Shown piece after piece: positions 36,799-43,780 of a stretch of 64,000 nt of DNA (the stretch's first letter is position 1; each line of letters opens with the position of its first letter). This DNA is from Gammaproteobacteria bacterium. Lineage in GTDB: Bacteria > Pseudomonadota > Gammaproteobacteria > CBDBNL01 > JAAOII01. Both the position numbers and the translations under genes were made by a program. A model generated the notes under the pieces. That model worked only from the letters and a program-made list of their open reading frames with translations. It was not told the origin of the DNA and searched no databases. The stretch is from contig OZ242303.1 of assembly GCA_965207945.1 (NCBI GenBank), forward strand, positions 1,161,048 to 1,225,047, read 5' to 3'.

Positions 36799-38454
36799 TT
36801 AGTCAAATACAACACGTATTCCTATAGCATCAGATTTGTGATTAGGGGGCACTCTTGCATTATAAGAGTAATGAGCAGCAATTCGCCCAGGTAATTTATA
36901 ATTTCCCCCTTTAACTATTATATTAACTCCATTATTATAAGGTTCAACCGAACTAGTCCATTCAGATATATTGCCTGCCATAGCAACCAACCCATTGGAG
37001 GTAGTGTCGTTAGTTTGCGCCGTAACCTCAATTGGACTATCTGGGAAGAACTTGGCAGACGCATCCCTTGTATGAGAGAATCCGCTAACATATTTATCTC
37101 CCCATATATAAGGGGTTATCTTGCCATCAGAGAAAACCTGCAGCCACTCTTCTTCTGTGGGTAATCTTCCTCCCGCCCATTTGGTAAACGCATAAGCGCT
37201 CCACCAATCCACCCCTACCACTGGCAGATCAAGTTGCTTGCGTTGCTCGCGCCAAGAGGCAGGAACATAAGAATGAAAACGTGGTTCTTTGCCGTTGGCA
37301 TAAAAGCCCAAGCGTGTCAAAGGGTCGCGCAAGAAATGACGATACTCTCTACGACTAATTTCATACTTGCTAAAACTAAGCGCAGGACGACCTTCACGCG
37401 AAGAAACCGCTAAAAAGGATTGCAGGACACGGGGGTTAGAATTCTCAATATATTCCATAAGTTTTGGCGCATAAGAATTCTTGCTTATACCCAATGGGTA
37501 GGTTCCGCCACTAATGGAAATTGCTTCTGTTGCGCCTTCCCATGGAAGTTTTAAATTAGCGGGATTCTTAGGATTTTTGGGATTCTTGGCATTATTGAAT
37601 TTATTAGACATGTAAACACAACGAAAACCGCTATACTTTGAACGAAAATCTAAAGGTGCAGGCCTTTCAATAAAGTTTAGTGATTGCAACATAAAAGGGC
37701 GATTATAATTATTGCCACCTTTTTGAATAGAACGCCCATCCTCAGTCATATTGATAGTCCATTCTGATAAGCCATTGCCCATATCAAAAACGCCTTGTGG
37801 CGTGGCATTTTTTATGCGGTTTTTCTCAGGAGCTGCTAAGTTAAGGATTGGATCATTATATCGCCAAGGAGTTCCTATAAATTTTTCTCCCCAAGGATAA
37901 GAACGTCCCTCTGTCCCAGCAGCTGCTGCCATCCATTGCTCTATGCTAGGTAAACTACCTCCTGCTGCTTGGCAATAAGCATAAGCTTCATAAAAACTTG
38001 CTCCAGCAATTGGCATATCCAAACGGCCGAGTATCTTATGATTTGCATAAGGATTAATATAGGTATAATCTAACGGTTCCAAATCATTAGCAAAAGCAAA
38101 TCTTTTATCACTTTGCAAAGCGAGCCAACCCAAAAATTTACGATAATTACGTTGAGACACCTCATACTTATCAATATAAAAACCTTGAATAGTGCTGTCC
38201 CCGTCTTCTGCGCTAATCTGCTCGCGCAATGAAGAGCTACGCCATAAATAAGCGGCATTTTCTGCAACTGCTTGGTCAAGACCACTTAAAGAGAATGATG
38301 GCGGTTGCACATTAACTGCAACACGCGGAATGAAACGTGCCTGAACGCGTAATTCCAACAGATATATCGCAACTGCTGCAACTGGAATAAAAATTAGCGC
38401 ATAAATTGCGCCTGTTCGCAATACTCTGCCAAGAATTTGACGCAGTTTATTCAT
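36799..38454 (-). CDS. Membrane-anchored protein with two FGE-sulfatase (SUMF1-like) domains
   Basis: 551 aa with an N-terminal TM (IYALIFIPVAAVAIYLL). Two repeats carry FGE-fold signatures (YIDKYEVSQRNY...YPWGEKF...GVFDMGNGLSEWT...FRCV and SKYEISRREY...GGRLPTEEEW...YIWGD...AMAGNISEWT...IGIRVV). Confidence 0.8.
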   Translation of the reverse strand: MNKLRQILGRVLRTGAIYALIFIPVAAVAIYLLELRVQARFIPRVAVNVQPPSFSLSGLDQAVAENAAYLWRSSSLREQISAEDGDSTIQGFYIDKYEVSQRNYRKFLGWLALQSDKRFAFANDLEPLDYTYINPYANHKILGRLDMPIAGASFYEAYAYCQAAGGSLPSIEQWMAAAAGTEGRSYPWGEKFIGTPWRYNDPILNLAAPEKNRIKNATPQGVFDMGNGLSEWTINMTEDGRSIQKGGNNYNRPFMLQSLNFIERPAPLDFRSKYSGFRCVYMSNKFNNAKNPKNPKNPANLKLPWEGATEAISISGGTYPLGISKNSYAPKLMEYIENSNPRVLQSFLAVSSREGRPALSFSKYEISRREYRHFLRDPLTRLGFYANGKEPRFHSYVPASWREQRKQLDLPVVGVDWWSAYAFTKWAGGRLPTEEEWLQVFSDGKITPYIWGDKYVSGFSHTRDASAKFFPDSPIEVTAQTNDTTSNGLVAMAGNISEWTSSVEPYNNGVNIIVKGGNYKLPGRIAAHYSYNARVPPNHKSDAIGIRVVFD

Positions 38455-38463
38455 TACTTAGCA

Positions 38464-40299
38464 TTACTTAGCATTACTAGATGACCTTCTTCTCACACTA
38501 CTACCAATTAGATAAAAGAACACCGCTATAATAAGCAGCGCCAATCCGCCATAAAGAAACCCTAAAATCGTTTCTCTTCTTAAAGGAAAATCTGGCAGCA
38601 CGCTAAACAACGACTGACTGTCAAGACGTAAAGAATTGACATCCCCTTCAACGTAAAAATTATCTCCATCGTTGCTGCCATAAACATAACCAACCACTAT
38701 ATCTTCAATGTTAGGGTCGGCAATAACCGCTGGATACCAACCCTCACGCTTTTGTTCCAAAACCTGTGGATGAAGTAAAATAGTATCTCCTGTAAGAAGT
38801 TCAGTTTCTTCACCCTGGTCAGGATATGGAAATAAACGCAACCTAAGGTTAACTATGTTGGCTTGTTCTGGGTATGCATCAGCATTAATTGCATTTAGTT
38901 GCATTGTCTCAAGAGGAGTATTGGCGGATATTAATGCTTTACTTATACAATTAGCGCATCTATTATGCTCCACATTAATTAGAGATTGCTTGTGTGTTTC
39001 AAAAGCAATCTGCATATTATCTTTGAGTTGATTAGCAAGCGGCAATAAAGGATGACCTTCTATAGCAACAGCGCCAGATAAAAACTGCCCCAATGCCTCT
39101 TGCAAATTAACTCTATCAAAACCGACTTCATCAACTTTCTTCAAATACTCCATAAGAAAAATTATCATAAATATATGATAATCAACTGGTTTACCATTTT
39201 GAAAGCTAGGAGAACCCACTGGAAATTCAAAAAGTGATTGGACTTCCTGCCCCTCCTCAGAATTGGATTGCTGTCCTGTAGATGGAAAACGAATACTTAA
39301 TGATGAGGGCTTGCCAAACTCAGAACTTCCTTCACCTCTTTCATCAACAATAGCTTCGGCAAGTGCTTCCGCTAAAGAATCTCCATAGCTTTGTTCTTCG
39401 CCCTCACTCCCGCCTAATTGCTCTAATGACTCTCTATTCTCTTGTTGCTGTTTGCCGCCGCGGGATAATCCTTCGCCGGGTGGTAAAAGCTCTTCAATTC
39501 TATCTGGTGAACGGAGCGAAACATCATCAGGCACCTCCACGCCTGCTCTCTCGCTATCTCCCTCTTCCTCTCCCTCCCCTTGCTCCTCAGCATTCGCCGA
39601 TTCCTCAGTATTTTGACCATCCTCATTAGTTCCCTCACCTTCCTCTAGGGCAGATGAGTTAAACAGTTCGGATTCTCCATTGCCCTGATGCTGTTGATGA
39701 GCTGTGCCTCCTTTTGGTGGAACCTCGCCTTCTCCTATAAAATGCCAATGACTTGGACGCGCTCCATTTTCTTTCATAATTGACAGAGCCAAATAGTATA
39801 AATTCAAACTATATATATCCACTCTTACCCGCGTCTTAGCTAAGGGATTAAGTAAACGTAAATAAATATCCAGCGCGTTATCTTCTTGCAATAGTTCTCC
39901 TCTTCTAAATATGTGATTAGAAGTTAACTCTCTAACATAATCATCATGCAATTCAATAACTGGATAAAGCCAAGGCAAGCAATCATGCCTTTCATATTCG
40001 TTGCGCCATGGTCCTGTGCGGCTTTGGCAATTGTAGTTATGCAGGATAGCTGGAGGGCTGCTTGGCAAATCATTAAATACCAAACTGCTTGCGATATCCC
40101 GCGCTAGTATCGCGCTTATTTCTGCGCTTTGCTCTATTTCTTGCTCGGTTTTTTGCTTTGTCAAGCTTAAGGTAATTATTATGACAATTAAAAGAATAAC
40201 AACTCCATTAGCAAGAACATCTGCTAATGCAACTCCGCCAAAATCCACTATTAGATTTTGTTTATTTTTTTCTCCTCTGAGTTTTCTATTATCTTCCAT
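38464..40299 (-). CDS. Hypothetical 611-aa envelope protein with a MotB/ExbD-like Asp-containing N-terminal TM helix, an acidic low-complexity spacer and a C-terminal TM helix
   Basis: N-terminus IVDFGGVALADVLANGVVILLIVIIITL resembles ExbD/TolR/MotB anchors with the conserved Asp. Also has a Glu/Gly-rich central region and a C-terminal ILGFLYGGLALLIIAVFFYLIG followed by RRRSS. Confidence 0.5.
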   Translation of the reverse strand: MEDNRKLRGEKNKQNLIVDFGGVALADVLANGVVILLIVIIITLSLTKQKTEQEIEQSAEISAILARDIASSLVFNDLPSSPPAILHNYNCQSRTGPWRNEYERHDCLPWLYPVIELHDDYVRELTSNHIFRRGELLQEDNALDIYLRLLNPLAKTRVRVDIYSLNLYYLALSIMKENGARPSHWHFIGEGEVPPKGGTAHQQHQGNGESELFNSSALEEGEGTNEDGQNTEESANAEEQGEGEEEGDSERAGVEVPDDVSLRSPDRIEELLPPGEGLSRGGKQQQENRESLEQLGGSEGEEQSYGDSLAEALAEAIVDERGEGSSEFGKPSSLSIRFPSTGQQSNSEEGQEVQSLFEFPVGSPSFQNGKPVDYHIFMIIFLMEYLKKVDEVGFDRVNLQEALGQFLSGAVAIEGHPLLPLANQLKDNMQIAFETHKQSLINVEHNRCANCISKALISANTPLETMQLNAINADAYPEQANIVNLRLRLFPYPDQGEETELLTGDTILLHPQVLEQKREGWYPAVIADPNIEDIVVGYVYGSNDGDNFYVEGDVNSLRLDSQSLFSVLPDFPLRRETILGFLYGGLALLIIAVFFYLIGSSVRRRSSSNAK

Positions 40300-40319
40300 C
40301 GCCTATACTTAACTATAAA

Positions 40320-40835
40320 CTAATTGTCTAAACTTCTCTGAATACGCGAAGGCAAATCTTGCAACCTAACTGCTTGAAGAAAATCATCGTTTGCGACTAT
40401 CCAGCCAATTGAAATTCTGCGATTCGGCCACATTCTCATTAAGCAATCCCGCGCTGCTTTCATTGTCCCAACCCCACCTTCAGTTATGGCAAATATTATC
40501 TGAGTTTTCCCCTTATCATAGACACTCTTAGCATAACGGGCAAAATTACTATCGGTACAAGATTCTTTAAGTTCGGAGTAATCACTAACTTCTTTATTCT
40601 CTATTATCTGCAAACGGTCTGAAAAAGCTAATACTATGTACCCTTCCGCTCCCTGTTCCCAATTAATCTTATAAACACTTTCTTCAATGCTATTTTCAAC
40701 TTGGGCTCTTAGTTGCGCTTCGGCAAATAGATTTATAAGTAGAAATAAAATAAGTAGCAACGCAAAAGCAGCGCCGAAAATTTCTACCATTGGGGTATTG
40801 CCGCCTAGTAACGAAGTTTTTTTAAAACGGCGCAT
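40320..40835 (-). CDS. Hypothetical 171-aa bitopic protein, ExbD/TolR-like anchor
   Basis: Basic N-terminus, then a single TM (MVEIFGAAFALLLILFLLINLF) with Glu where ExbD/TolR carry Asp, and a roughly 130-aa periplasmic domain. Immediately downstream of a MotA/ExbB-like gene. Confidence 0.45.
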   Translation of the reverse strand: MRRFKKTSLLGGNTPMVEIFGAAFALLLILFLLINLFAEAQLRAQVENSIEESVYKINWEQGAEGYIVLAFSDRLQIIENKEVSDYSELKESCTDSNFARYAKSVYDKGKTQIIFAITEGGVGTMKAARDCLMRMWPNRRISIGWIVANDDFLQAVRLQDLPSRIQRSLDN

Positions 40836-40861
40836 CCTATATTTTTAGTTCAAAAGTTCTA

Positions 40862-41989
40862 CTATTTATTATGAGTGATATATTCTTCAATAAATAAAAA
40901 CTTTTGCTCTTCCCACCTTTGTAAAACTGTGTAAATAAAAGCTAAGAATACGCTCAGAGATAACGCAATTAACGTAGTATCAAAAGCAATTCCCAAGGGC
41001 TCCATAGCAGAATTAATGCTGTCGCCTATATTCAGGTTTGACGACTCAACTATATTTCCTATCTCGCTTGCTGCAAGAGAAATACCAAGGACTGTGCCAA
41101 TAAAACCAAGTATAGGAATCGCCCAGTTGATATAGCGCGGAAAAAAATAAAATGTCTCATTTGCCTGCCAAGCAATATCTACAAACCTTTTAGCTACCGC
41201 CTCTGCTGAAGTTTTGCCAGCGGAAGCATACGACTTACTATAATCATGCCAAGCAGTCATTAGAGGAGAGTACTTGATTTTTGACTTCTTATTATTAAGG
41301 ATATTTTTCATAGTAATATTATTAATACTCAATTGATATTTCCCCAACAATAAAATACTTTCCCAATAAAATAAAACCAAGCATAAGGGCGGTATAACAC
41401 CGCGTTGTAAAAATTTAACTTTTAAGAAACCTAACAAACTATTTTGGTCCAGAGTGTGAAAGATTAGCATTGTCAAACAAGTAACAATTGCAGCCACGCA
41501 AAAGCTTAGCAACAAAGAAGGACCACCCATTATTTCCTTAATTCGTTCTTCCACTGTAGAGGTCGCGCCATAAGAGGCAGTTATTATTCTCAGTAGAATC
41601 CCAATAGAACTAAGCCCAAGTAAAAAGAAAAGAATAACTGTGTGCTCCACTATATTTAATCCTTCGCCTCTCAGAAGATTATTCCACAAGAAAAACACTG
41701 CCGTTAAAATGCCAATGAAAAGAACTACAATATTTACTTTAAGTGAATACATAAATGAAACTGCTTCACCGCGACTTCTTTGCAGATAGTACAAACCACC
41801 CGATACCACAATGCCAGATATAAGACCAGGCATAAAAGTCCATCCAAATTGACGCGTTATAGCGCTCAAGCTTATAGTAAGAAAAAACAAATTGAATAAC
41901 CAAATAGGATTATAAAGCTTAGGTGAAATCCCCATAGATAAATTTTGTGATAAGATTTGTCGCGTTTGTACTGATGTTGCTTTTTTCAT
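40862..41989 (-). CDS. MotA/TolQ/ExbB proton-channel family protein, atypical long form
   Basis: C-terminal PILGFIGTVLGI...EPLGIAFDTTLIALSLSVFLAFIYTVLQ aligns by eye with ExbB/TolQ (P.(I/V)GL(F/L)GTV.GI ... GIAEAL.(A/T)T..GL..AIPA...YN). Preceded by about six extra hydrophobic segments. Confidence 0.7.
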   Translation of the reverse strand: MKKATSVQTRQILSQNLSMGISPKLYNPIWLFNLFFLTISLSAITRQFGWTFMPGLISGIVVSGGLYYLQRSRGEAVSFMYSLKVNIVVLFIGILTAVFFLWNNLLRGEGLNIVEHTVILFFLLGLSSIGILLRIITASYGATSTVEERIKEIMGGPSLLLSFCVAAIVTCLTMLIFHTLDQNSLLGFLKVKFLQRGVIPPLCLVLFYWESILLLGKYQLSINNITMKNILNNKKSKIKYSPLMTAWHDYSKSYASAGKTSAEAVAKRFVDIAWQANETFYFFPRYINWAIPILGFIGTVLGISLAASEIGNIVESSNLNIGDSINSAMEPLGIAFDTTLIALSLSVFLAFIYTVLQRWEEQKFLFIEEYITHNK

Positions 41990-41995
41990 ATTGGG

Positions 41996-42445
41996 TTACT
42001 TTTCCTCTTTGGAGGAAGTGGCTGAAGTTGAAGTAGAAGTTGAAGTTGAAGCCATTTGCGCTTTAGCATCCGCATGATGAAAACGCCCGTTTACTGATGC
42101 TCCATGACGCATATCCATATCATTGTAATGAATATCACCGCGAACGACCGAACCTGGCATAAGCACGATTATTCCTTCAGAATAAATAGTGCCTTCCACT
42201 ATCCCCATAACTGTTATTTCAGGGGCATTAAGGTTACCCGCAATCTTGGCATTAGGTCCGACAACCAGAACGTCGCCATTATTTTTATTTTTATCTGAAC
42301 TTATGTTACCTTTTAATTTGCCATCAAAATACATTTTGCCGGTGAATTTTAAGTCACCATTGCACTTTAATGATACATCTATAGATGTATCATATTTTTT
42401 GTTGCCGGGGCCATTTGCACCAGCACCATTGTTACTGCTAAACAT
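41996..42445 (-). CDS. Bactofilin (DUF583) family protein
   Basis: 149 aa with beta-helix repeat pattern (G.L.F.GK..FDGKLKGNI...AKIAGNL.A.E..V.G.VEG.I......V.....VRGDI) and a Ser/Thr-rich tail. Confidence 0.8.
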   Translation of the reverse strand: MFSSNNGAGANGPGNKKYDTSIDVSLKCNGDLKFTGKMYFDGKLKGNISSDKNKNNGDVLVVGPNAKIAGNLNAPEITVMGIVEGTIYSEGIIVLMPGSVVRGDIHYNDMDMRHGASVNGRFHHADAKAQMASTSTSTSTSATSSKEEK

Positions 42446-42548
42446 TTGTAATATCTTTAATATCTCTTTAATTAATTAAATGTTGGAATTAATCCGCTCT
42501 CCACCTTAATACTCAAATACTCAATAAGTATTCAATAAGTGTAAATAT

Positions 42549-42896
42549 CTAAATATCTGTCTCTCCGTGCAAACTTCCCTTAGCTTGAATTGATAAGCTA
42601 TTACACTTAACTTTACCCAATACGGTTCCGCCTGCTAACAAATCACAAGATTTAGAAATAATATCCCCTTCTACTCTGCCATTCACATATACTTTATCTG
42701 CAACTATATTCCCTTGAACAAATCCATGTTTACCAATGGATACATTGCTATCACTTGTAAGATTCCCCTCCAGATGTCCGTCCAAATGCAGGACGCCATC
42801 CAAATTTATATTACCAGTTAATTTTGTTCCACTGGTGATGATTGTAGTGCCAGATTTTGTATATCGTTCTTTATCGCCGTTACTATTTGCTCCCAC
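42549..42896 (-). CDS. Bactofilin (DUF583) family protein
   Basis: 115 aa: TIITSGTKLTGNINLDGVLHLDGHLEGNL...VQGNIVADKVYVNGRVEGDI...VLGKV.C.SL.I...GSLHGE, a canonical bactofilin repeat pattern. Confidence 0.85.
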   Translation of the reverse strand: MGANSNGDKERYTKSGTTIITSGTKLTGNINLDGVLHLDGHLEGNLTSDSNVSIGKHGFVQGNIVADKVYVNGRVEGDIISKSCDLLAGGTVLGKVKCNSLSIQAKGSLHGETDI

Positions 42897-43780
42897 TTTA
42901 TACTTTTATACTTAGAAAAAATTTCCTCAAAATTAGCCAGATTCCAATTATAAAAATAATATGGATTGACTGCGCGTCCCAAATACCTCACTTCATAATG
43001 CAAGTGTGGTCCTGTAGATACCCCCGTGTTACCTCCCTTCGCTATCAATTGTCCTTTTTGGACTATATCTCCCTTTTTAACTAAGTTTTCATGCAAATGA
43101 GTATACATAGTAGAAAAACCAAACCTATGGTCTATAACTATGCTATTCCCATAACCAATCTTCCGTCCCGAGAAAGAAACCGTGCCTCCTGCAGTAGTTA
43201 TTACTCCGTCACCTGTAATAAGTGGCATGTCTATTCCATGATGAAATTGGACTTGATTGTATATAGGATGTCTGCGCACTCCATACGAACTACTTACATA
43301 AGATTCTTTTTGCAGAGGAGTTCCGCTGGGTAAGATATACATAATATTTAAACTTTCTGATACCTTATCCAAAGCATAAGTTAAACCTTCATCTGTAGGT
43401 CCTCTAACTTCGCTAAAAGCGACCAATTCTTTACTTGCAAAAATAGCATTAGTTTTTTTCTTTTTCAACAGATAGCCAAAAATATCCGATGACTCTAAAA
43501 TCTTGTCCTTACGAACGATGACTTCTGATAAATCATCTACCTGTTCGGTTAATTCGTGATTCGCATCCATTGCCACAGAATATTGATTCTGCACCGCAGT
43601 ATAATCTTGTTGAATTTGAAGCTTCCTCTCGTTCAGATATCCCACTAAGTAAAAACTTCCAATAAGAGAGAGAATAATTACTGTAAACGCCCCCGTCAAT
43701 AGATATAGAAATGCCTTATGTAAAGTCATTACATGGGTTCTATTTAGTGTGCTAAATATAATAGTTGATTTTCTATGCAT
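42818..43780 (-). CDS. M23-family (LytM-type) metalloendopeptidase with N-terminal TM and coiled coil
   Basis: HHGIDM (HxxxD) and GPHLHYEV (HxH) zinc-ligand motifs are both present. The 3' end overlaps the downstream bactofilin ORF by 79 nt. Confidence 0.85.
   Translation of the reverse strand: MHRKSTIIFSTLNRTHVMTLHKAFLYLLTGAFTVIILSLIGSFYLVGYLNERKLQIQQDYTAVQNQYSVAMDANHELTEQVDDLSEVIVRKDKILESSDIFGYLLKKKKTNAIFASKELVAFSEVRGPTDEGLTYALDKVSESLNIMYILPSGTPLQKESYVSSSYGVRRHPIYNQVQFHHGIDMPLITGDGVITTAGGTVSFSGRKIGYGNSIVIDHRFGFSTMYTHLHENLVKKGDIVQKGQLIAKGGNTGVSTGPHLHYEVRYLGRAVNPYYFYNWNLANFEEIFSKYKSIKWEQIVTAIKNDIQNLALQSSPVEQN

Follow-up and report, generated by a model that had tools for sequence, protein, structure and literature searches.

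Organization of the locus

The window, that is, the whole 64,000-nucleotide stretch of gammaproteobacterial DNA that was analysed, contains five consecutive minus-strand open reading frames separated by 6, 26, 20 and 9 nt, at the coordinates reported by the initial annotation (Table 1). They encode a bactofilin, a polytopic protein of the MotA/ExbB/TolQ family (the A subunit), two proteins of orphan families (p171 and p611), and a membrane-anchored protein with two FGE-sulfatase domains (FGE2). A second bactofilin gene and an M23 peptidase gene lie upstream, and a SPOR-domain protein is encoded downstream together with CvpA and PurF (all assigned by Pfam); these three downstream genes match the common dedD-cvpA-purF arrangement. 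The usual partners of stator systems are absent, as previously noted: no TonB, TolA/B, Pal, flagellar, OmpA or Zor genes are found within ~8 kb.

Table 1. Genes and features of the locus, with positions in the window
Feature	Position	Strand	Description
M23 peptidase	42818-43780	minus	Pfam Peptidase_M23, 1.4e-29; bitopic, TM helix aa 28-46
Bactofilin 1	42549-42896	minus	Pfam Bactofilin, 6.9e-23
Bactofilin 2	41996-42445	minus	149 aa; Pfam Bactofilin, 4.5e-20
A subunit (MotA/ExbB/TolQ family)	40862-41989	minus	375 aa; Pfam PF01618, 26.3 bits
A-subunit TM2-loop-TM3 core	40901-41131	minus	aa 287-363; 'INWAIPILGFIGTVLGISLAA...PLGIAFDTTLIALSLSV'
p171	40320-40835	minus	171 aa; single-pass orphan family
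p611	38464-40299	minus	611 aa; Asp-bearing N-terminal TM helix; orphan family
p611 D27 codon	40219-40221	minus	N-terminal membrane helix
FGE2	36799-38454	minus	551 aa; Pfam PF03781, 2.9e-46, two stretches
FGE2 TM anchor	38356-38412	minus	aa 15-33
FGE2 domain 1	37606-38196	minus	aa ~87-283; FGE-sulfatase fold
FGE2 domain 2	36808-37389	minus	aa 356-549; FGE-sulfatase fold

A conserved four-gene cassette

A synteny survey of 81 related genome loci separates the five genes into two groups. The gene order A-p171-p611-FGE2 is conserved in ~75 of the 81 loci, and the stop codon of one gene often overlaps the start codon of the next; p171 adjoins the A subunit in 78 loci, p611 is found in 77, and FGE2 in 73. 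No other neighbour is conserved, the commonest reaching 11 of the 81 loci. Bactofilin, M23 and SPOR genes stand beside the cassette in four loci only, which are the closest genomes, this window included; the conserved unit is thus a self-contained cassette of four genes rather than the five-gene module first described. Bactofilin 2 was considered as a cassette member and rejected on the same count. It is instead the last gene of a separate M23-bactofilin-bactofilin module of the LmdC-BacA type.

The stretch at 41996-43780, with a bitopic M23 peptidase followed by bactofilins, resembles the cell-shape modules BacA-LmdC and CcmA-Csd1, a likeness that concerns the neighbours only, as these are unlinked to the cassette outside one lineage. 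Bactofilin-M23 pairing has been reported in 226 species (PMC10945521), and the pairing of the M23 peptidase with bactofilin 1 is of this known kind and independent of the cassette.

The peptidoglycan remodelling or positioning role assigned to the locus was built on these lineage-specific neighbours. A five-gene, bactofilin-coupled machine driven by proton-motive force would fit the close spacing between bactofilin and cassette (6 nt or an overlap, seen here and in three relatives), the position of the cassette between the M23 peptidase and the SPOR protein, and the lack of any terminator seen between the genes. We regard such a machine as highly unlikely, because 77 of the 81 loci have no bactofilin, M23 or SPOR gene in their flanks, which elsewhere consist of unrelated housekeeping genes, because the M23-bactofilin genes are a known module of their own and the SPOR-CvpA-PurF genes match a common arrangement, and because Pfam and NCBIfam detect no peptidoglycan-binding or peptidoglycan-hydrolase domain in the cassette proteins.

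The A subunit

Assignment of the A subunit to the MotA/ExbB family holds above the Pfam threshold, though weakly: the match to MotA_ExbB (cut-off 22.9 bits) is confined to residues 287-363, spanning TM2-TM3, and homologues reach 33-38 bits. Full-length matches form 68 clusters at 50% identity (E<=1e-30). The predicted topology comprises ~5 extra N-terminal TM helices followed by a 3-TM core of the ExbB/TolQ type, with a KR-rich loop (220-287) that is for this reason predicted to be cytoplasmic, and only 20 residues after the last TM helix. Residues P292, T299, P331, D337, T338 and T339 are invariant in 28 homologues, and in P292, T299, P331, T338 and T339 the A subunit keeps the MotA_ExbB motif pattern. 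The family profile retrieves no solved MotA, ExbB, TolQ or ZorA chain at E<=1, and the best single-sequence PDB match, ZorA (8vvn_C), is not significant (E 0.92) and aligns the TM2-loop-TM3 core. Outside its core family, the A subunit is closest to long MotA_ExbB proteins that resemble ZorA and have helical tails. One distant relative is encoded on an Anabaena plasmid, with type III-B Cmr genes on one side and viperin on the other.

The partner proteins p611 and p171

The p611 protein has an N-terminal TM helix (aa 22-46; TM prediction gives 28-46) and, as previously proposed, a second predicted one near its C-terminus (aa 577-595). Between them lie a predicted periplasmic alpha/beta domain (~100-187), a disordered linker (195-365) and a beta-rich domain (370-555), as modelled by AF2; the linker contains 41 D/E against 10 K/R, in keeping with the acidic spacer that had been described. 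All 78 of 78 homologues retain D27, near the cytoplasmic end of the first TM helix, as well as N31; an H184-W185-H186 motif is nearly invariant. The p171 protein has one predicted TM helix (aa 16-37) and a small periplasmic alpha/beta domain (aa 63-156, modelled by AF2 at pLDDT 85-95).

The ExbD/TolR-like label given to both proteins rests on the N-terminal TM motif. Neither has a Pfam family (nor p171 an NCBIfam family), the label finds support for neither protein in Pfam or NCBIfam, no fold match to p611 was found in PDB or BFVD, and neither shows significant similarity to ExbD/TolR in profile, hhalign or Foldseek searches; the best probability in the Foldseek list for p171 is TolR 5by4 (E 0.75, probability 0.33, TM 0.46), which is not significant. 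Position 18 of p171 is Glu in this window and Ala in 43 of 72 homologues, so that of the two anchors originally proposed only that of p611 keeps a carboxylate. On the strength of its invariant Asp, p611 can be read as the ExbD/MotB-like partner of the A subunit. No B subunit is known that, like p611, is tethered to the inner membrane through both of its ends.

Two known systems bear on this arrangement. In the AglR-AglQ-AglS motor of Myxococcus gliding, a TolQ-like A protein is likewise encoded with two different single-pass partners, suggesting a mixed axle. AglQ and AglS are recognisable TolR homologues, both Asp-bearing, whereas neither cassette partner is recognisable as such, the Asp occurs in p611 only, and no Glt complex genes accompany the cassette. 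ExbB-ExbD(-TonB) and TolQ-TolR(-TolA) share with the cassette a polytopic Pfam MotA_ExbB protein with a 3-TM core and KR-rich cytoplasmic loop, a single-pass protein next in the operon whose helix carries an invariant Asp close to the cytoplasmic side, and a further single-pass protein and a long flexible periplasmic linker. They differ in that the A subunit carries the additional N-terminal helices and scores only 26 bits against the family, the partners match neither ExbD (PF02472), TonB nor TolA, the Asp-bearing partner is 611 aa long with a second, C-terminal TM helix, the cassette includes the twin FGE-fold protein as an obligatory fourth member, and linked outer-membrane partners are missing.

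These similarities, among them the TonB-like disordered linker of p611, and the ExbD or TonB_C genes a few kb from the cassette in a few loci, would suit an energiser in which p611 or p171 acts as TonB or TolA, transmitting proton-motive force to partners in the outer membrane that are encoded elsewhere, so as to serve uptake or stabilise that membrane, with FGE2 as a periplasmic adaptor. This seems decidedly improbable: neither the window nor the conserved neighbourhood contains a linked TonB, TolA, TolB, Pal or TonB-dependent receptor gene, the C-terminal helix brings p611 back to the inner membrane, the neighbouring ExbD genes lie on the opposite strand in just ~5 of 81 loci, and Vibrio thalassae, a carrier of the cassette, presumably already possesses Tol-Pal and Ton systems.

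The twin FGE-fold protein

The two FGE-sulfatase domains and single predicted TM helix of FGE2 agree with the earlier description. Its best PDB sequence match is human FGE (5e-7), but the cysteine pair at the FGE active-site position is absent from both domains; C161 and C279 are invariant. From its sequence, FGE2 is predicted to be periplasmic and non-catalytic. Their charge distribution (positive inside) assigns most of p171, p611 and FGE2 to the periplasm, and in two genomes p611 and FGE2 are fused into one open reading frame, joined by a TM hairpin that fits the predicted topology.

The GldL-GldM/PorL-PorM motor with GldK/PorK and GldJ (T9SS and gliding in Bacteroidota), to which the locus had been compared, offers a partial analogy: a motor of the inner membrane driven by ions, a single-pass partner with a long periplasmic part, and FGE-fold proteins that have a structural, non-catalytic place in the periplasm. 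It is no more than an analogy: FGE2 reaches 43.7 bits where the GldK cut-off is 350, and 18 bits where those of GldJ are 383-458. The cassette motor proteins belong to different families with no GldL or GldM match, FGE2 is TM-anchored in the inner membrane rather than being an outer-membrane lipoprotein, and no T9SS genes occur with the cassette, which is found in different phyla.

A static membrane scaffold or channel complex, holding a periplasmic FGE-fold protein with a putative enzymatic or redox role, is very improbable. It would account for the weak MotA_ExbB match and undetected solved homologue, for the enzymes among the FGE-fold proteins matched in PDB and NCBIfam (FGE, EgtB, SenA), and for the H-W-H motif of p611, which could bind metal. 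The invariant Asp of the partner helix and the equally invariant Thr and Pro residues of A-subunit TM2 and TM3, however, are the signature of a working stator, the FGE catalytic cysteines are missing, and the matches to EgtB and SenA fall far under the family cut-offs.

Distribution and genomic setting

Nearly every carrier of the cassette is a sponge-associated MAG, with at least five phyla represented, and Vibrio thalassae also carries it; p171 occurs in >106 species-level genomes, almost all sponge MAGs (sponge association was read from record titles among the matches listed by two scans). On a Nitrospirales chromosome, the cassette proteins are 73% identical to their gammaproteobacterial counterparts. 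The cassette has moved between phyla and, among the matches listed, occurs almost only in sponge-associated bacteria. It is flanked by housekeeping genes rather than defence islands, and no viral contigs or plasmids bearing it were found.

Such patchy, apparently horizontal distribution, together with a non-flagellar motor, is also a feature of the ZorA-ZorB proteins of Zorya, and sponge symbionts are rich in defence genes. The cassette could be a Zorya-like sensor of phage or envelope attack, with the motor registering disturbance of the envelope and the periplasmic FGE-fold protein blocking or binding whatever invades, be it a phage or a T6SS effector. The ZorA-like relatives of the A subunit, its top PDB and PADLOC matches (ZorA, insignificant), the setting of the distant relative on an Anabaena plasmid, and a preprint whose title reports FGE-like proteins as T6SS immunity proteins point the same way. 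We nonetheless consider this unlikely. The A subunit is without the long cytoplasmic ZorA tail, and the cassette lacks a peptidoglycan-binding domain of the ZorB type as well as ZorC, D, E, F and G, and encodes neither an effector of the cytoplasm nor a nuclease; PADLOC holds no model that matches p171, p611 or FGE2. Of the 147 ORFs that flank the cassette at 40 loci, any one defence family accounts for two at most (generic kinase and DinG matches), the remainder being housekeeping genes. The cassette is also retained in small genomes (1.5-2.3 Mb), and four related genomes keep it at the same place among housekeeping genes.

A proposed inner-membrane motor

No earlier description of a system combining such an A subunit, an Asp-bearing partner and a twin FGE protein was found in the literature or in HMM libraries, in agreement with the initial annotation. 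The reading we favour, with somewhat better than even confidence, is that the four genes encode an inner-membrane motor of MotA/ExbB ('5:2') type, powered by ions, with a catalytically dead periplasmic FGE-fold protein. The synteny, the family match, the invariant residues, the topology prediction, the p611-FGE2 fusion and the distribution are results of the analysis; what follows on stoichiometry, on ion flow, on how force is transmitted and on the role in the cell is inferred. The polytopic A subunit would form an ion-conducting ring, with the D27 helix of p611 sitting within it in the manner of ExbD, TolR and MotB, and ion flow at the A/p611 interface would power rotation or a power stroke. 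Movement would reach the large periplasmic part of p611 and pass, via membrane-helix contact, to the inner-membrane-anchored FGE2, which would be catalytically dead and serve as a binding or scaffold module with a C-type-lectin-like fold. The p171 protein would be an obligatory single-pass accessory, either another axle subunit, one that has no carboxylate, or a partner at the periphery. Against this reading stand the weak family match confined to TM2-TM3, the want of a solved homologue, the lack of significant ExbD or TolR similarity in p171 and p611, and the anchoring of p611 at its two ends; nor was any partner that binds peptidoglycan or sits in the outer membrane identified. Since the cassette is mobile between phyla and kept mainly by sponge-associated bacteria, this motor probably works on the cell envelope while the bacteria live with their host.

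Gene organization and the conserved unit

Five minus-strand open reading frames occupy the positions proposed in the initial annotation, with intergenic gaps of 6, 26, 20 and 9 nt (Table), and the FGE gene is separated from a downstream SPOR gene by 36 nt. The neighbours that had been named also proved correct by Pfam, with a second bactofilin and an M23 peptidase upstream, and SPOR, CvpA and PurF downstream. Farther out are housekeeping genes, the minus strand carrying those for aconitase, an S49 peptidase and AdoHcy hydrolase and the plus strand those for PhoH, YbeY, CorC, Lnt and MurJ. At 38455-38479, a short tandem duplication (AGTAATGCTAAGTAATGCTAAGTA) takes in the stop codon of p611 and the 9-nt gap that precedes the FGE start.

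Table. Coordinates and family matches of the cassette genes and the adjoining bactofilin-M23 genes
Feature	Coordinates	Strand	Family match
M23 peptidase	42818-43780		
Bactofilin 1	42549-42896		
Bactofilin 2	41996-42445	minus	Pfam Bactofilin, 4.5e-20
A subunit (MotA-like, 375 aa)	40862-41989	minus	Pfam MotA_ExbB (PF01618), 26.3 bits, cut-off 22.9, residues 287-363 only
p171	40320-40835	minus	No Pfam match
p611	38464-40299	minus	No Pfam match
FGE protein (551 aa)	36799-38454	minus	Pfam FGE-sulfatase (PF03781), 2.9e-46, two stretches

Many unnamed homologues exist for the MotA-like protein, and 81 genome loci fetched with a profile of the A-subunit family made up the synteny set. The order MotA-like protein, p171, p611 and twin-FGE protein is kept at about 75 of the 81 loci, often with overlapping stop and start codons; p171 is present at 78, p611 at 77 and the FGE gene at 73. 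Genes for bactofilin, M23, SPOR, CvpA and PurF stand beside these four only in the four closest genomes (L001-L004, the L002 sequence ending before the M23 position), and all-versus-all clustering of the flanking ORFs from the 81 loci yielded no further conserved neighbour, the commonest one occurring at 11. Two more metagenomic chromosomes carry the identical four genes in unrelated surroundings, and the Vibrio thalassae copy, with VTH8203_01055 and VTH8203_01056 among its locus tags, is flanked by a GGDEF-EAL gene and a solute symporter gene. Because the four genes are kept and their other neighbours are not, the conserved unit is a self-contained four-gene cassette. The initial annotation had counted bactofilin into a five-gene module, a grouping that is limited to the four closest genomes, and had taken the peptidoglycan and bactofilin context as part of the system, whereas this context is a neighbour effect. 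The synteny evidence disfavours the reading of the locus as a bactofilin-coupled, proton-motive-force-driven peptidoglycan machine.

Bactofilin 2 is instead the last gene of an M23-bactofilin-bactofilin group (41996-43780), in which, by Pfam, a bactofilin adjoins the gene for a bitopic M23 peptidase with a predicted transmembrane (TM) helix. Such bactofilin-M23 pairing of the BacA-LmdC type is known from 226 species (PMC10945521). The M23 and bactofilin 1 ORFs overlap by 79 nt as called (42818-42896), the latter with a GTG start, and the true start of bactofilin 1 is probably farther downstream. The C-terminus of bactofilin 2 (41996-42060) is a low-complexity (Ser-Thr)n tail, 'ASTSTSTSTSATSSKEEK'.

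At three loci, L014, L037 (9617-11798) and L057 (9578-10711), the A gene stands alone and the other three genes are missing. These are orphan paralogues, and p171 matches place a full cassette elsewhere in the same genomes; at L037 a PD-(D/E)XK transposase gene directly follows the orphan. On one 5.5-Mb metagenomic chromosome, a 541-aa ankyrin-repeat protein is encoded just upstream of the cassette (L083:5427-7052). Ankyrin-repeat proteins are typical of sponge symbionts.

The A subunit

By its sequence, the A subunit is classed as a distant member of the MotA/ExbB family. It passes the PF01618 cut-off; the V. thalassae homologue scores 26.2 bits, wider relatives 27-38 bits and two orphan paralogues 23.1 and 16.6 bits. 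The predicted topology consists of about five TM helices, with a KR-rich loop and then the last three TM helices as an ExbB/TolQ-type core; the loop at residues 220-287 carries 10 K/R ahead of the last two TM helices. Across 28 homologues, P292, T299, P331, D337, T338 and T339 do not vary; they lie within 'PRYINWAIPILGFIGTVLGISLAA' and 'PLGIAFDTTLIALSLSV'. The protein thus has the conserved Thr and Pro of the last two TM helices and preceding cytoplasmic loop that characterize MotA/ExbB/TolQ proteins, residues that we take to be equivalents of ExbB T148/T181 and MotA P173/P222. The adjacent single-pass partner with an invariant TM carboxylate that belongs to this family is likewise present, in the form of p611 and its D27.

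Searched with the A-subunit profile, 1.84 billion representative proteins yielded 68 clusters with full-length matches at E<=1e-30, and about 1600 weaker matches restricted to the C-terminal core. The latter are longer MotA_ExbB proteins, some of them with ZorA-like long helical tails. Among solved structures, a profile search of PDB sequences gave none at E<=1, and the best single-sequence match, ZorA 8vvn, was not significant (E 0.92).

p611 and p171 as candidate partners

The N-terminal helix of p611, 'FAGVAL(A/V)DILANG...', holds D27 and N31 in 78 of 78 homologues. It thus has, close to its cytoplasmic end, the invariant Asp that is expected of ExbD/TolR proteins. The AF2 model (mean pLDDT 62) divides into five regions. 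Beyond this N-terminal TM helix, residues from about 100 to 187 fold as an alpha/beta domain (pLDDT ~78) and residues 195-365 form an acidic linker that is disordered; a beta-rich domain then spans 370-555 (pLDDT 85-90), ahead of a C-terminal TM helix. Foldseek comparison of the model with PDB and BFVD found nothing at E<0.1, and no TolR or ExbD match in PDB. The first periplasmic domain closes with a His-Trp-His motif, 'HWHF.GE' (aa 184-187, window 39739-39750), conserved at H184 in 76 and at W185 and H186 in all of 78 homologues; the motif may bind a metal or another ligand.

In p171, a putative obligatory accessory, AF2 models a single TM helix and a confident small alpha/beta domain. Foldseek found nothing for this fold at E<0.1 in PDB; the highest probability in the list belonged to TolR 5by4, which was not significant (rank 20, E 0.75, prob 0.33, TM-score 0.46). 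At the position of Glu18, suggested earlier as the anchor carboxylate, 43 of 72 homologues have Ala, 28 Glu and 1 Ser, and p171 therefore lacks the invariant Asp of ExbD/TolR.

The assignment of both p171 and p611 to the ExbD/TolR family could not be upheld by PF02472 or by profile homology. Neither protein has a Pfam or NCBIfam match, whether as single sequences or as any of the 18 + 32 alignment members; hhalign probabilities against E. coli ExbD and a 7-sequence ExbD/TolR profile are below 5%, and a profile search of PDB for ExbD homology gave nothing significant. The non-significant hhalign alignment places 'PMVEI' of p171 and 'ALADV' of p611 on ExbD 'PFIDV'. A paralogous relationship between p171 and p611 was also rejected, the profile comparison of the two being non-significant, with no similarity past the TM helix. 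Since p171 Glu18 is not kept and the ExbD/TolR profile comparisons are non-significant, p611 is the only credible Asp-bearing, ExbD/MotB-like partner, by motif and position only.

True ExbD/TolR homologues are found near the cassette at L016, L025, L026, L034 and L039, about 5-9 kb downstream on the opposite strand. They match E. coli ExbD at 1e-7 to 7e-14 (phmmer) and are confined to Oxydemutatoraceae and Porisulfidus loci.

The FGE protein and its fusion to p611

The FGE protein consists of an N-terminal TM anchor and two FGE folds, an assignment that agrees with its PF03781 match; the closest solved sequences are FGEs (~5e-7). A catalytic formylglycine-generating enzyme was rejected, as neither domain has a cysteine pair before the C-terminal G-F/I-R motif, the active-site cysteine position being that which we assume from human FGE. 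Of the cysteines in the protein, C161 and C279 alone are invariant. The NCBIfam matches, to EgtB, SenA, GldK and GldJ, all fall below threshold. A rival reading of the cassette as a static scaffold around an enzyme is unlikely, since both the missing FGE cysteines and the invariant D27 of p611 speak against it.

A single ORF encodes both p611 and the FGE protein in two genomes, one a Thermodesulfobacteriota MAG and the other a Poriferihabitaceae MAG (L051:11069-14551, 1160 aa; L062:11075-14605, 1176 aa). At the junction, the C-terminal helix of p611 and the anchor helix of the FGE protein, connected by a short KR-rich loop, make up a TM hairpin, in agreement with the predicted topology of the two separate proteins. 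The hairpin argues for physical cooperation between p611 and the FGE protein.

Comparison with known systems

The cassette was likened to the ExbBD, TolQR and ZorAB stator units, to which the A subunit is distantly related, but its partners fail the ExbD comparisons. A Zorya-like defence system or attack sensor is suggested by the relatives of the A subunit, yet the cassette has neither effectors nor a defence-island context. The long C-terminal tail of ZorA, the peptidoglycan-binding domain of ZorB and the effector genes are all lacking, and the A subunit, in contrast to ZorA, stops 20 residues past its last TM helix. With PADLOC, the A subunit has only faint ZorA matches (E 0.01-0.1) and the other four of the five proteins none, and among 147 flanking ORFs from 40 loci, which are mostly housekeeping genes, no PADLOC family occurs more than twice. 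Defence as the main reading was rejected on these PADLOC results and on the failure to find the cassette in viral contigs, but it stays among the rival readings. On plasmids, p611 has no match and the A subunit matches only distant cyanobacterial and Rhizobium relatives. One of the distant relatives, on Anabaena cylindrica plasmid pANACY.03 (L239, NC_019773.1 12299-14165, 466 aa), is accompanied by two small hypothetical genes and has type III-B CRISPR Cmr genes on one side and a viperin gene on the other, so that the wider ZorA-like branch seems to occur in a defence-island setting there.

A further rival is an energiser of the Ton/Tol type whose outer-membrane partners are unlinked; of the 147 flanking ORFs, 2 contain a TonB_C domain. 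The comparison with the Bacteroidota gliding/T9SS apparatus stands as an analogy of parts with the FGE-fold GldK and GldJ, but not as family membership. The FGE protein reaches 43.7 bits against the GldK equivalog cut-off of 350, and 17.7-18.2 bits against the GldJ cut-offs of 458 and 383 (NCBIfam), and in contrast to these lipoproteins it begins with a TM anchor and has no lipobox Cys. GldL and GldM families have no match in Pfam or NCBIfam. Identification of the cassette as Zorya, Ton, Tol or GldLM/GldK was accordingly rejected. Neither the cassette nor its two orphan proteins are described in Pfam, NCBIfam or PADLOC, and no description of the cassette was found in literature on MotA/ExbB/TolQ motors, FGE proteins, sponge symbionts and bactofilin-M23 pairs.

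Distribution and transfer

Two scans with the A-subunit profile recovered an identical set of at least 80 genomes, and a p171 scan recovered at least 106 relatives, with about 36 genomes beyond that set. Among the matches listed, almost all carriers are MAGs from sponge metagenomes, including Candidatus Poriferihabitaceae, Porisulfidus and Spongiihabitans, and Methylococcales symbionts of Hymedesmia and Iophon. These named taxa were confirmed as coming from sponge genome projects, and many of the remaining bins carry names that are presumably those of published sponge metagenome studies. The carriers listed that are not sponge-like in origin are Vibrio thalassae CECT 8203, the only culture among them, one MAG from the Guaymas Basin and MAGs from sea caves; the V. 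thalassae p171 and p611 homologues are annotated as hypothetical proteins. Descriptively, the sponge association among the matches listed is strong.

As labelled in their records, carriers belong to the Gammaproteobacteria, Alphaproteobacteria, Nitrospirales, Thermodesulfobacteriota/Deltaproteobacteria and Spirochaetales. Between a Nitrospirales chromosome and gammaproteobacterial carriers, the cassette proteins share about 73% identity, a level that indicates transfer of the cassette between phyla. The cassette is kept in reduced genomes of 1.5-2.3 Mb. The Alphaproteobacteria MAG CBDBIK01 carries the p171 marker twice, on contig_9 and contig_8 (L218 and L182).

A proposed mechanism and its implications

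The evidence best supports reading the cassette as a MotA/ExbB-type motor driven by ions. Its ring would be formed by the A subunit, and D27 of p611 would provide the ion-binding site on the inner helix. Movement would pass to the periplasmic domains of p611 and, by way of the helix-hairpin contact, to the non-catalytic twin FGE-fold protein acting as a binding or scaffold module, with p171 as a putative required accessory. What the data show is the synteny, a family match at the threshold level, the invariant residues, the logic of the topology, and the fusion and distribution of the cassette genes; stoichiometry, ion flow, force transmission and target are the parts that we infer.

A bolder proposal, conceivable if on balance doubtful, is that the cassette represents a new class of ion-driven MotA/ExbB-type motor, in which a membrane hairpin links the Asp-bearing axle protein to a catalytically dead twin FGE/C-type-lectin-fold protein of the periplasm. 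Such a class would have arrived independently at the 'motor plus FGE-fold scaffold' logic seen in Bacteroidota GldLM-GldK/J, and would have been passed among at least five phyla because of an envelope function specifically needed inside sponges, such as mesohyl persistence or evasion of host phagocytes.

Each newly understood member of the small class of envelope motors has so far revealed a new cell function, and the cassette would add to it a motor whose two partner families are orphans and whose output has the FGE fold. Its distribution, in sponge bacteria of several phyla and in reduced genomes, makes it a candidate, testable symbiosis determinant. Most sponge symbionts are beyond genetics, but the cultured carrier Vibrio thalassae CECT 8203 can be approached directly by experiment.
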